Assembly: GCA_964016885.1 (NCBI GenBank) | Contig: OZ024747.1 | Coordinates: forward strand, 57,970,001 to 58,034,000 | Length of the DNA stretch: 64,000 nucleotides | Origin: Eledone cirrhosa | Taxonomy: Eukaryota | Direction: 5' to 3' | Part shown: in pieces, positions 17,539-58,598 of the stretch | Position numbering within the stretch: the first letter of the stretch is position 1 | Layout of the letters: the number at the start of each line of letters is the position of its first letter | The notes under the pieces: generated by a model | Told to the model about the DNA's origin: nothing | Databases searched by the model: none | What the model saw: the letters and a program-made list of their open reading frames with translations, nothing else | Program-made: the position numbers and the translations under genes

Positions 17539-18830
17539 TAACAATACAACAGAACAAATGCGAATAAATAAGGAAAATATGTTTATTCAAAAATATAGAC
17601 CAACATTAAATAAGGTTTAATATACATTATGTCAACACCACAATATGACATACACACACACACACATAACACCTTCTACTTTAGAAAATAAAAACCCGAA
17701 CTAAATAAACCTTAACATACGTTTGCACTGGCAATACAACAGCAAACACGAAAAAGTAAGGAAAATATGTTCATTCAAAAATATTCCTACTAAAGGAATC
17801 ACTTTCCTACACACACACATACACACACACACAATATATATATATATATATATATATATTCTCTTCATCTTAACATGCTAACCATACTCCCACACACATA
17901 ACACCCATACACACACATAACAACCCCCACACCTACAACTCCCTCCCCATTTCTACTAATAGAACCACTTTCCTACACACACATATATATATACACACAC
18001 ACAAAATATATATTCTCTCCATCTTAACATACTCGCACACACACACATAATACCCATATACACACACACACAACTCCCTCCCTCATCTCTACTAATAGAA
18101 TCATCTTCCAATACACACATACACACACACACACACAAGCACACAAATAAACATACATATCTTCAGTCTCAATAGAAAATCTGAACTCTGACACCCCGGC
18201 GAGCTGGCCATATTCACTGAACCAGAACATTTCTCCCAATCCCTTTTCTCTTGACCACTATCTCTCCATTGTCATAACATTCACTATAAAGACTACAGAA
18301 TAGTTTTCCAAATAAGGGCGCAAAAATGTAATGAAAACTTGTTCACGTGACAGCCAAATTTCATTTATAACCAACCAAAAAAAAAGCCTTCGTGAGCCTC
18401 CTTTTTTCAAGTAAAAAGAAATTCAAACACTCATATATGAAAAAACAACCTGTGACAACCCCCCCCCCCCACTTTCTTATTTGAAGAACTATTGTAACGC
18501 GAACTGGCGCGAAATTTATTATAATTATTGACAAACCAATCAAATTACTTCTCGAAAAACCTGGCATTTCGAGCCACTTTTTCCATATAAAACAAGTAAC
18601 ATTCTGAGACCAACCAGATGTGAGAAAAACCACAGACCCTCCATCTCAACTCACCTTTTGAAAAGCAGAAGAACTGCGAAACCGGTAAAGGAACCAAATA
18701 AATATATATATTTAAAAAAAAAATAAGACTTCAGTTGCATTTTCGATTTCATCTCTTTTTCTTTATACTTTTACTCGTGTAGGACACCTCGGTTATTTTT
18801 CATTTTGTAAAAAAAAACCTTACTTTCTAA
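17539..18830 (+). mobile_element. Penelope-like element 3' fragment (end of GIY-YIG, 3' UTR, pLTR with HHR)
   Basis: Matches 46160-47090 (KENMFIQKYRP.LN..*). Ends with the HHR at 18654-18691, then TA. TA-flanked on both sides. Confidence 0.85.
18654..18691 (+). ncRNA. Minimal type I hammerhead ribozyme with U3:A8 core
   Basis: cctt TTGAAAA GCAG-aagaa-CTGC GAAA CCGG TA aagg: perfect stems I and II, palindromic stem III ACCGGT, GUA triplet. Confidence 0.85.
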
Positions 18831-19496
18831 TATATATATATATAAATGAAATAGAAGGAAAGGAAATTTCATTTCTCACTCTTAGTACGGCAGTTACTTA
18901 AAAACTATATATATATATACATAAAGGAACGATCGACATTCGTCAAATCAAACCGAGGAAACAGTGCTTTCATTGGTCTTTCCAATTGCTAATACTATCT
19001 ATCGGTCGCAACTCCAGGTAGAATATATATATATGGGTCACATATTCAGGAAAATGTTTCTGAAGGTTATAGCCAGACAACATTGTTTTCAGGTAAATAA
19101 CACGATTACATTTTAAATTTTTGTTGACAGGAGATATTTGATATCACGTTGGAAATTACTTTGTAAATCGTACATAATAGCTGATGTAATCAATATAAAA
19201 CTACAATTGTAAATCTATAATGTGATCTCGAAAAGATACAGTTGTGATTTATATGTTAGTCTTGTCGTATTAGAGGAGGGCTCTGGTGTGAGAGATGAAT
19301 TACTTTCTACTATCAATCCCACAAAAGTAAATGAGGACCGTTAAACGTGCCATTCACTAATCCCCTTTTCACACTGATTAATTCACACTCATGAACACAC
19401 ACACACACACACACACACACACACACACACACACACACACACACACACACACACACACACACACACACACACACATATATATATATACATATATTC

Positions 19497-19750
19497 ATAC
19501 AGTAATGTACTGGGTAATTGCTCGCCTTGTGCTGAAAGTAGAAACACTTATATAATAATATATGTATATATGTATGTATATACATATATTCATACATATA
19601 TACATACATACATATATACATATATTATTATATAATTGTTTCTACTTTCAGCACAAGGCGAGCAATTACCCAGTACATTACTGGTACTTTATTTTATTGA
19701 CCTCGTAAGGATGAAAGGCAAAGTTAACTTTGGCGGGAATTGAACTCAGA
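19497..19750. mobile_element. SINE family A 3' end in a fold-back arrangement around a TA-rich centre
   Basis: cagtaatgtactgggtaattgctcgccttgtgctgaaagtagaaaca (19500-19547) and its reverse complement (19637-19683), continuing into the SINE body on the minus strand. Confidence 0.8.
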
Positions 19751-19905
19751 TATTACTATAGAATGGTCAGTATATATACTTTGAGCTTGTTTAATTGCAG
19801 GGTATGTATCAATATGAGTTAATAACTCTGTATTTTATTTGTACATATACAGTCTATATATATATATATATATATATATATATATATATGCACATATATA
19901 TATAT

Positions 19906-55152: not shown

Positions 55153-57342
55153 ATTATAATGCCATATATTTAGGCAATGTTTATAGACCATATATATGAT
55201 AGTTTATAGGCTAAATTAAGTGACACCTTTCCCTAGCATGTGTATTTTCCTAAACTTACAAATGAATGCTGAACTATTAAACTAGGCCAATGTTTTATTG
55301 GGAAACCTGGCGTAAAATGTCCATGCCCATTCTGTAGCATTATACTTTAGAGAGTTTAATGTAATGGCTATCAGAGATTTCACAGGAAAGAGAAACAAAT
55401 TCTCGGATTATTATCGCTAGTAGCTTACGCTACGCGGTTTGGTGCCAACTAAGAATATTTCAAACAATGTACTGCTTCCATAAATACCTATTGCTTTCGA
55501 ACTCTATAGCAAATTAATCTATCTCTCACTATAATAGATATTGGTTGTTAAGTAATATTTAAATTTGGACCCAATTTAAACCGAAAATTGCTTTTGATTA
55601 ACGGAATACTCGGTCTAAAATAGTAATGTTACTTTTGGAATGCCTCCAGTTCAGATCAACTTGGGATTCTGAAATTCCTTCCAATGCTAAATAGAAATCT
55701 GGCGTTATTCCATAGAATCATCACCAAGAAAATATTTCCAACGAAGAAAGCAAATAATAGAAAAACACATCATTACTGGAAACTGACTACTCCACAGCAT
55801 GAAAATACACGGAAAAATTCAGTAAATATGGTGGTATATTTTCTAGCAATTAACTCTACGTAATTTGTTGTATACGGATGAAGTTGTCTTGACCATTTCC
55901 GTTCGCAACCGTCTTAGCTTGCTGGAATTCATTCTCATATTTCTTATAATGGTAATCACACGGTCCCGAAGGGGAACATACTAAAATGTTTGTAAGAACA
56001 GGATAGCAAGAACAAAGATATATATATATATATATATATATATATATATATATATATATATATATATATATATATATATATATATATATATATATATATG
56101 TATATATATATAAATCAAATGCATCTGTTTATTTCCATATAGACAGTAATAACAATGATTGATTGTTATAGGCTGCAAAGATGATATATAATAAATACCT
56201 TCGATTTTCTTAGTGCCCATCTACTTTACTAATCTTAGCTAAACTTTCTCTTTCTCTCAGTACATTTCACTCTCTCTTTCTCTATGCATATATATTTGTT
56301 CGCGCGTGTGTGTTGTTTATGTAAGTGTTTGTGTGTATGTATGCATATCTACGCTCAGATATCACATATAGTTATATACTGCATGTACACAAAGAAATAT
56401 GTCTATTTTTGCGTGCCTGTACATATAATTGCTTTTGTTGTAACGATGCCATCTTTATCAGCCTACCATAAGTTCGACAGTGACAAGCCTGGAACTAGGT
56501 AATATGAAGACGGCAGATAATTTCCAAGTCAGTCTAATGACGAATAATTTGATGAAATTACTTTCCAATTATTAATGATTCGTTAATTATACAAAGAGAA
56601 ACCTCATTGAAATAAACTGAAACAGAAAAGATGATAGAAAAAATAACGAAAAAAATTATATAAAATAGATTTAAAATTAGTATGGCAAATCTCACTTCCC
56701 CTCAACCATTTTATTTCGATATTATAGTTTATTTAAAGACCACGATGATAAGATATTTGTATGTAAAGTGAATTAGAGATCAATAATAATCAAAATAGCT
56801 TGCCTATTAATATATCTGTACATATATGAATATATAGCTTCTTCTGCGATTATCTCAAGATTGATGCTTGCGTGTCTTTTTATCCATATTTTAAATATTT
56901 ATTGCTTTTGTTTCTATTTTACTTTGCTTTATGTTAATAAATACTTGAGTTCACTTTTAATGCACTTCCTTATGCAGAGGAGGGAGACTGTTTTAAATTA
57001 GGCAATATTTTAAACTGCCAACGATAAATTTGAATGCGATACCGCCGAAAGCCTATATTTCATAATGACGGTTGTGATCATGAAAATTACTTTGATGATA
57101 ATGATGGTGGAGGTAGTAGTGGCGGTGGTGGTGGTGGCGGCTGTGGTGGTGGTGGTGGTGGTGGTAGCAGTGTCAGTTGTATTAGCGATAGTAGTAGAGC
57201 TGTTAATGTTGATGATAGCTAAGATGGTATCGTTATGATTGTGATAGTGATGACGGTGCTACTCCTACTGATCTATTACATTGTTGATGCTCTAAAATTA
57301 TGGTGTAAGCGGCTGAGCATTCCACAGACACGTGCACCCTTA

Positions 57343-58140
57343 ACGTAGTGACGGACGCAGGTAGAACTCAGTTTTGTTAGCTGAGTGGCCACTAGAATCG
57401 AACTTACGCCCTTACAATCGTAAGCCAAATACCTTAACCTCTAATCCACGAGAATTCACACACACATACATCCATATATATATAAGTGAACACACATACA
57501 CAAACACACATACACACACATACACATATGGTGTTCGTTTGATAGGATTCTATATTATATATCTGTTTATGTGTTTGTGGTTTTGTAACTCTAGTCGTAC
57601 ATAACTTCTTGTAGCTAAAGTAATATAACAGCGGTAATATCATCATCAACACATCATCACCATCATTATTTCCCGTCGTTTTACGTGATCATTCCTGTAC
57701 ATTATCTTAGCTGTTTTCGTTTGTCAAGTTAATGAAACGTTCTTTAGTTTTCTGTATATCGTCACTCGCCTCAGGACTTAGCTGAATTCAGGTTATTTTT
57801 GTTCTCTTTTTATCTGAAAGATTAAGAAGTAAAAGGAAACAACCTCTTTCAATGTAACATTCAAAATATAAATAAACATACATATCTGATAAAATAAATA
57901 TAAATTAATGTAACAAATAGTAAACAGTGAAAGGAGATTTTACCTGATTCAAAGTAAGAAAGAAACAAACACAGCTATAACGAAGAAACTGGAATTTACA
58001 GAACGTAGTGACGCAGGTAGAACTCATTTTTGTTAGCTGAGTGGCCACGAGAATCGAACTCACGCCTTTACAATCGTAAGCCAAATACCTTAACCTCTAA
58101 GCCACGAGAATTCACACACACATACATCCATATATATAAG
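57343..58140. repeat. ~140-bp direct duplication of a minus-strand SINE head (57343-57487 and 58003-58140)
   Basis: cgcaggtagaactca.ttttgttagctgagtggccac.agaatcgaact...cacacacatacatccatatata is present twice. Confidence 0.8.
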
Positions 58141-58161
58141 TTGCACGGGATAAGGTATTTT

Positions 58162-58598
58162 GACTGTCACTACTCTAAAACAATAGCGTAAGGGCTTCGA
58201 AATGCTTTTAATTAAGCATACACTATATATACATTCATATATATATCGCTATTTCAGAGCACCAATTCTAATTTTCAATTTCTGCTTGACCGGCAACCGC
58301 TCTGTATAATCAGTTTCTGATTATTACTGGAATTCTATAAGAATCAAACATTCATAATTTTCAGCAAACAGGTGGAGTAGTTAGCTTTGATAAGCACTAA
58401 AAAGTGCGAAACAGAGCTCTGTCAGCTTTATCTCCCCTGTTTGCTGAAAATTGAAGTAAGTGAGACTGTCACTACTCAAAAACAATAGCGTAACGTCTTC
58501 GAAATGGGTTTACTTAAGCATACAGTGTATTGCAAAATACACTATATATACATTCATATATATATTGCTATTTCAGAGCACCAATTCTAATTTTCAAT
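58162..58598 (+). mobile_element. 1.4-unit tandem of a 302-bp HHR-containing repeat (retrozyme-like)
   Basis: gactgtcactactc...accaattctaattttcaat occurs at 58162 and 58464; the HHR lies between them, and the array ends at TA. Confidence 0.78.
58356..58452 (+). ncRNA. Type I hammerhead ribozyme, U3:A8 core, long extended stem I
   Basis: aattttcagcaaacagg-tggag-tagtt-agct TTGATAA GCACT-aaaa-AGTGC GAAA CAGAGCTCTG TC agct-ttat-ctcc-cctgtttgctgaaaatt; GUC triplet at 58421-23. Confidence 0.88.

Follow-up and report, generated by a model that had tools for sequence, protein, structure and literature searches.

Hammerhead ribozymes (HHRs) in which U3:A8 replaces the C3:G8 pair of the canonical CUGANGA core are known from nature. 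Perreault 2011 (PMC3088659) described U3-A8 covariation as compensatory, citing earlier in vitro activity, and Cervera and De la Pena 2014 (PMC4209133) found ~1,300 U3-A8 motifs in Schistosoma mansoni, spread via the Penelope-like element (PLE) Cercyon. Here we consider six UUGANAA cores in 64,000 nucleotides of the genome of Eledone cirrhosa (assembly GCA_964016885.1, contig OZ024747.1, forward-strand positions 57,970,001 to 58,034,000; hereafter the window), for which a first-pass annotation had proposed that a compensatory core recurs in unrelated HHR families and points to selection for activity. Whatever novelty this implied for the swap itself falls away, U3:A8 being an already published variant, PLEs included (PMC3088659, PMC4209133). 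What we consider the probable reading is that U3:A8 hammerheads reside in two unrelated PLE families and a retrozyme, and that they reached this state via tolerated mismatches, under selection that is loose at the 3:8 pair.

Compared with the examples in the available text of Perreault 2011, which are rare, the same covariation is here the state of whole families. The likeness to Cercyon is closer: going by the accessible parts of PMC4209133, there too U3-A8 motifs lie in PLE terminal repeats, in >1,000 mostly solitary copies that a standard descriptor misses, and inverted pairs lie 100-700 bp apart. The Eledone motifs differ in being about ten times more numerous, in occupying two PLE clades plus a retrozyme, and in including a family (B, below) with a full stem III. 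Moreover, this family contains amplified C3·A8 and U3·G8 subfamilies, of which those parts of the Cercyon account hold no counterpart. PLE hammerheads are described as having low activity (PMC4209133), and Craig 2021 (PMC8557442) discusses the idea that hammerheads are parasites of PLEs. Within the portions available, bioRxiv 10.64898/2026.07.22.740005, PMC6155905, PMC7151607 and PMC8782182 add nothing decisive.

Hammerhead anatomy in the window and the genome

A hammerhead was recognised by three helices around N3-UGA-N7-N8-A, together with GAAA, NUH and a Watson-Crick 3:8 pair. The UUGANAA core lies within such anatomy, with U:A at 3:8, at 6/6 of the places named in the first-pass annotation, whose minus-strand positions are the left ends of cores starting at 33351, 33782 and 12517. 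Its statement that the stems are intact holds for three of the six, 18658, 33782- and 58387, which have the full three-helix anatomy; at 12517- a stem I strand is lost, and 33351- and 34318 are weak. The six sites fall into three families, A (18658, 12517-, 33351-), B (33782-, 34318) and C (58387), among which no significant DNA similarity was found (best E 0.07), so that recurrence in three unrelated families is borne out. By anatomy, the motifs of all three are type I hammerheads, and U3:A8 is the main core state of each.

As a mere string, TTGANAA occurs at 74 sites in the window, which has 33% GC. A structure-aware descriptor leaving positions 3, 7 and 8 free scored seven type I HHRs in the window, whereas 30 shuffled windows, taken as background, gave 0.03 each. 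Three are U3:A8 (18658+, 33782-, 58387+; the 34318 copy is absent), and four are C3:G8 motifs of other repeat families (35231+, 53365+, 53228-, 61188-).

Searches for the string CUGANGA do miss the U3:A8 motifs, as had been supposed. An Rfam scan of the whole window gave no hammerhead among the 150 of 255 matches listed, which were mostly microsatellite look-alikes. The family C motif reached 22 bits against Hammerhead_HH9 (E 0.0016; gathering score 52), and an Rfam search with the family A and B motifs returned no HHR match. Because a C3:G8 control motif went unmatched in the same way, the Rfam failure is mainly due to architecture, and the gathering score has little power for motifs of this sort.

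Across the 3.0-Gb genome we searched with exact patterns for each family, which makes all copy counts lower bounds; reversed-pattern controls gave zero in all searches. Family A has 12,494 matches, 12,330 (98.7%) of them U3:A8; the others comprise 112 non-U3 copies, of which the 100 listed all lack G8, and 52 U3 copies with a base other than A8. Family B has 6,227 matches, at most 4,765 of them U3:A8, and just eight with C3:G8 (read by eye from all 85 non-A8 copies). Family C has 182, with A8 in 100/100 matches listed and U3 in 21/22 read in context. U3:A8 is thus a family consensus and not a collection of random CTGANGA mutants.

In 60 evenly spaced 10-kb stretches of the genome, a score of at least 20 was reached by 23 C3:G8 motifs, four U3:A8 motifs and three others (shuffles 1.2). 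Three of the four U3:A8 matches come from a single AT-rich tandem in L143 and were discounted as probable chance matches. U3:A8 is a minority state genome-wide, by extrapolation ~17,000 motifs against very roughly 100,000 with C3:G8. The AT-rich C3:G8 HHR of the window is the most frequent type in this 600-kb sample.

Carriers of the three families

Family A appears to be carried by a Neptune-type PLE, represented in the window by the following features (ORF, open reading frame; RT, reverse transcriptase; LTR, long terminal repeat):

17539..18855, + strand: 3' end and pseudo-LTR of a 5'-truncated, putatively Neptune-type PLE with the family A HHR, 80% identity to 46160-47096
18654..18691, + strand: minimal type I HHR of family A; U3:A8 core 18658-18664, stem III a palindrome (dimer type), cleavage predicted after 18687
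12484..12517, - strand: family A copy, U3:A8 core, stem I 5' strand removed by an 11-bp microduplication
33316..33358, - strand: copy of an older family A subfamily, U3:A8, 84% identity to 18636-18693
44474..46230, + strand: broken RT and GIY-YIG ORF of the putative Neptune-type PLE of family A; this copy stops before its HHR

The hammerhead at 18658 has stem I CCUU/AAGG, a stem II of 4 bp, the palindrome ACCGGU and GUA. The copy at 12484..12517 has an inverted partial partner at 12549-12644, and the weak stem II at 33351-, with U.U at 10.1/11.1 plus 2 bp, is of a type recurrent in the older subfamily. Motif and carrier are connected through locus L135, where one element spans ORF to HHR and with which 17539..18855 is collinear: the ORF at 44474-46230 is 91% identical to L135, which runs on into a family A hammerhead, and the DNA upstream of 18654 matches the 3' region of that ORF. 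The same order, a Neptune-type ORF and then the HHR, is found in L122 and L001. The ORF has a Pfam RVT_1 match that falls short of the curated cut-off (E 4.6e-5), a GIY-YIG match (E 1.9e-6) and a CX4CxxC linker. Taken together, the Neptune-type features found for family A are an RT, a CX2-5CxxC linker, a C-terminal GIY-YIG and an HHR in the 3' repeat; the clade label derives from these motifs, and the linker is common to Nematis. Like family B, family A often forms inverted, 5'-truncated pairs next to (TA)n, as described for PLEs. One family A copy, with C3·A8, is co-duplicated in an interleukin-17 (IL17) tandem array with a period of ~9.6 kb (L108:4437-4997 and L109, G000:C1 348.86-348.91 Mb), whose ORF matches Pfam IL17 (E 1.7e-13).

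Family B is present in the window as two arms of a single inverted insertion, which differ at 8.4% of sites, the largest value among 33 such pairs:

33689..33786, - strand: family B HHR, U3:A8 core 33782-33776, long stem II, hairpin stem III, GUC
34314..34410, + strand: family B HHR, inverted partner of the former, one stem II pair lost

The minus-strand copy has stem I CCCC/GGGG, a long stem II and a stem III hairpin of 5 bp. Its carrier would be a Hydra-clade PLE, a label given by comparing ORF motifs with the description in PMC8557442: the family B ORFs (L112, L115, L101) share with the Hydra-clade elements of Craig 2021 RWR, DKT, a CxCX5C linker plus, at the C terminus, a GIY-YIG-type motif, with (TA)n in the flanks. 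The Hydra elements in the available text of that paper carry canonical HHRs, whereas the core in family B is U3:A8, C3·A8 or U3·G8, and that of a sister family is the U4A form described below. Among the Hydra-type elements of this genome, family B forms one clade (support 100/100, 14 rows), while the motifs of L116, L139, L148 and L155, inspected by eye, have C3:G8. In L139, L148 and L155 these HHR-like motifs have a stem II region of ~80-110 nt, exceeding usual descriptor limits. Families A and B fall in different PLE clades, and the Hydra-type relatives of B retain C3:G8, so that the two most likely reached U3:A8 separately. The window further holds family B half-copies that start within stem II (36095-36140, 37167-, 44431-); several form short inverted pairs, which would give long hairpins if transcribed.

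Family C is a tandem repeat of the non-LTR retrozyme type:

58164..58598, + strand: family C tandem repeat, ~1.4 units (unit ~319 nt elsewhere)
58356..58452, + strand: type I HHR of family C; U3:A8 core 58387-58393, helix I extended, stem III a 12-nt palindrome, cleavage predicted after 58423

The hammerhead has stem I AGCU/AGCU plus a long outer helix, a palindromic stem III and GUC, with a fold z of -8.1. Locus L106 holds 18 head-to-tail matches with a unit of ~319 nt, and L106 and L107 consist, like retrozymes, of non-coding tandem units of 150-450 bp with one type I HHR each. Stem II covaries from GCAC/GTGC to GTAC/GTAC, each half being backed by over 50% of the depth in runs X1-X3. There is no consistent link to an ORF. 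Hydra-type ORFs lie nearby in L041, L052 and L116, and we considered whether family C might be a PLE terminal repeat; their positions are inconsistent and the ORF in L116 ends in its own C3:G8 HHR, so we regard them as nested insertions. The metazoan non-LTR retrozymes, as far as the available text of PMC7229834 describes them, are alike in their low-GC tandem units, single type I HHR and palindromic stem III; family C differs in its U3:A8 core and is known here from DNA alone. A second tandem repeat of ~310 nt, in L049, is a distant relative of family C (77-82% over short parts).

Core variants and history of family B

When positions 3-9 were left free, positions 4, 5, 6, 8 and 9 were constant in 99 of the 100 family B matches listed of 4,396 (by eye), and positions 3 and 7 depended on the subfamily. 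Within the 6,227 copies, C3 occurs in 1,395: 1,318 read CUGAGAA, 59 are C3·A8 with another N7, and 18 are non-A8 (these 18 by eye). A U3·G8 wobble subfamily (L207-L223) adds ~20 copies, 11 of which were sampled and cluster in the tree. The Watson-Crick 3:8 pair is therefore missing from 1,377 C3·A8 copies and from this subfamily. Each of the U3:A8, C3·A8 and U3·G8 source elements gave many copies. Could CUGAGAA have arisen by deletion of U3? In most copies four C's of stem I still precede C3, which excludes this; stem I being intact, the core is a substitution.

We built a tree from 91 of 115 family B copies (24 with truncated flanks were dropped), masking positions 3, 7 and 8; the trees are made up of elements of this genome. 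The CUGAGAA copies (L058, L071-L099, L225-L231) form a ladder of ~0.24 substitutions per site with eight starred nodes. The ladder is flanked by a young U3:A8 clade and by the U3 group to which the window copy belongs, and two U3,G7 copies sit at its base. Monophyly of the C3 copies is rejected (p-AU 8e-6; 25 vs 19 rows). Divergence between the arms of inverted pairs is 1.0-5.6% in 14 C3 insertions and 0-2.9% in six U3,G7,A8 insertions. Protein outgroups failed to settle the root. The path would be either U3:A8 to C3·A8 and back to U3:A8, or C3·A8 to U3:A8 twice, and under both orders mismatched source elements transposed over a long time. With ~1,300 copies derived from mismatched sources, fast self-cutting was likely not needed for spread.

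Another Hydra-type family, separate from B, ends in a hammerhead-shaped motif with the change U4A. Its core reads CAGAAGA, and stem II has U.U as its basal pair; the genome holds 20,564 matches, with A4 and no U4 in 100/100 listed. In the window it is seen here:

60701-60749, - strand: U4A hammerhead-shaped motif of a Hydra-type PLE family, found also in L121 and L131; broken copies lie near 19921-20008

In a literature search of limited extent, neither C3·A8 nor U4A turned up as the core of an amplified hammerhead lineage; supplements may list such variants. Elsewhere in the window, positions 1-2820 (+) hold a broken ORF2 of LINE type, whose reverse transcriptase domain matches RVT_1 (E 1.1e-12).

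Selection, drift and cleavage

How might three unrelated carriers have come to share U3:A8? On the reading we favour, selection would keep the fold and most core bases and be loose at 3:8, where pyrimidine-purine mismatches are tolerated; AT-ward mutation could then shift C:G to U:A, likely separately in each family, by C-to-U and G-to-A steps through mismatched intermediates, and partly back. Weak or protein-helped cleavage would trim the tandem precursor RNA of the element. A and C may be cut as dimers formed by pairing of the palindromic stem III, with a predicted cut after GUA or GUC, and B possibly as a monomer; neither A nor C is predicted to hold a stable stem III alone, and the predicted energy of the palindrome duplex is -8.3 kcal/mol for A and -20.1 kcal/mol for C. 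In family C, cleavage would free a monomer that may circularise. Most genomic copies are truncated and probably inert. That all three carriers ended on a Watson-Crick 3:8 pair, that five core positions of family B are nearly constant and that stem II of family C changes on both sides argue for some selection, and to this extent the proposal of selection for activity is partly supported. As worded it was overstated, because the C3·A8 and U3·G8 lineages of family B and the U4A lineage were amplified, and because of two published results, namely the type III HHR pairwise mutagenesis, a deep mutational scan (PMC9901934), and the work on an anole PLE (PMC11167929).

Several observations weigh against the reading we favour. 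In the type III scan, going by its available text, a G:C swap alone was rescued and the U:A swap was not. Self-cleavage of the A, B and C motifs is a prediction from sequence, and the predicted probability of the monomer HHR fold is 0.002 for C and low for all B types, with medians from 0 to 0.26 (C3G7A8 median 0.02, n=26, vs U3U7A8 0.26, n=10; low throughout, with decay uneven among copies). Family A is very homogeneous, and its near-uniform U3:A8 therefore reflects one or a few source elements and not repeated selection. The HHR of family C may go back to an ancestor in common with A or B. Finally, C3 copies were deliberately over-represented in the family B tree, and, the outgroups having failed to root it, the order of core changes is suggested only by divergence.

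A different explanation, which we hold to be rather unlikely, is that the motifs do not cleave at all and were kept as RNA structure (for protein binding, dimerisation or as a template signal) or simply inherited, U3:A8 being the outcome of AT-biased drift. The low GC content of the window and the amplification of mismatched and U4A cores would fit, as would the accessible results for the anole PLE, where HHR-dead mutants insert normally in vitro, cleavage required added protein and no reads end at the cut site (PMC11167929), and the description of Naiads as spreading without canonical HHRs (PMC8557442). If there had been drift only, however, it would be hard to see why three carriers rest on Watson-Crick U:A, why family B returned to U3:A8 or reached it twice, and why its other core bases are fixed. 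Family C, too, fits poorly, with its canonical HH9-like motif, covarying stem II and tandem arrays of a self-cleaving kind (PMC7229834).

Conversely, selection for cleavage might have been strict, so that all amplifying sources were active. CUGAGAA would then have to owe its activity to a shifted register that pairs C3 with G7, N7 being in effect deleted and one extra A standing ahead of stem II. PLE HHRs typically have an additional base between 9 and 10.1 (PMC4209133), and G7 is indeed tied to C3: it is present in 1,318 of 1,377 C3·A8 copies (96%), while 1,972 of at most 4,765 U3:A8 copies have another base. N7 also varies again in the youngest U3 clade. Yet the linkage of C3 and G7 amounts to one lineage episode, in which ~1.5 N7 changes are expected by a rough count and 0 or 1 are seen, a non-significant difference. 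Nor did we find it in print that an N7-deleted core is active, and neither the U3·G8 subfamily nor the U4A family is explained. We consider strict selection improbable, and give equally little credence to the bolder proposition built on it, that in family B the compensatory evolution of a ribozyme active site is preserved as a fossil record, in which U3·G8, U3:A8 and C3·A8 were amplified in one lineage and CUGAGAA stayed active via C3:G7. Random post-insertion mutation of CUGANGA families or chance matching, for all the frequency of the TTGANAA string, is refuted by the descriptor background, the empty reversed-pattern controls and the near absence of C3:G8 from families A and B.

The swap being known, its recurrence is in the first place a census point: ~17,000 motifs in this genome would evade CUGANGA descriptors. 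Were the fossil-record proposition true, it would, together with the U4A family, give this genome two undescribed, possibly protein-assisted hammerhead cores. Family B, finally, offers natural near-isogenic cores (U3:A8, C3·A8, U3·G8 and rare C3:G8) of known copy number, which make it testable whether hammerhead cleavage is required for the spread of PLEs or whether their hammerheads are passengers.

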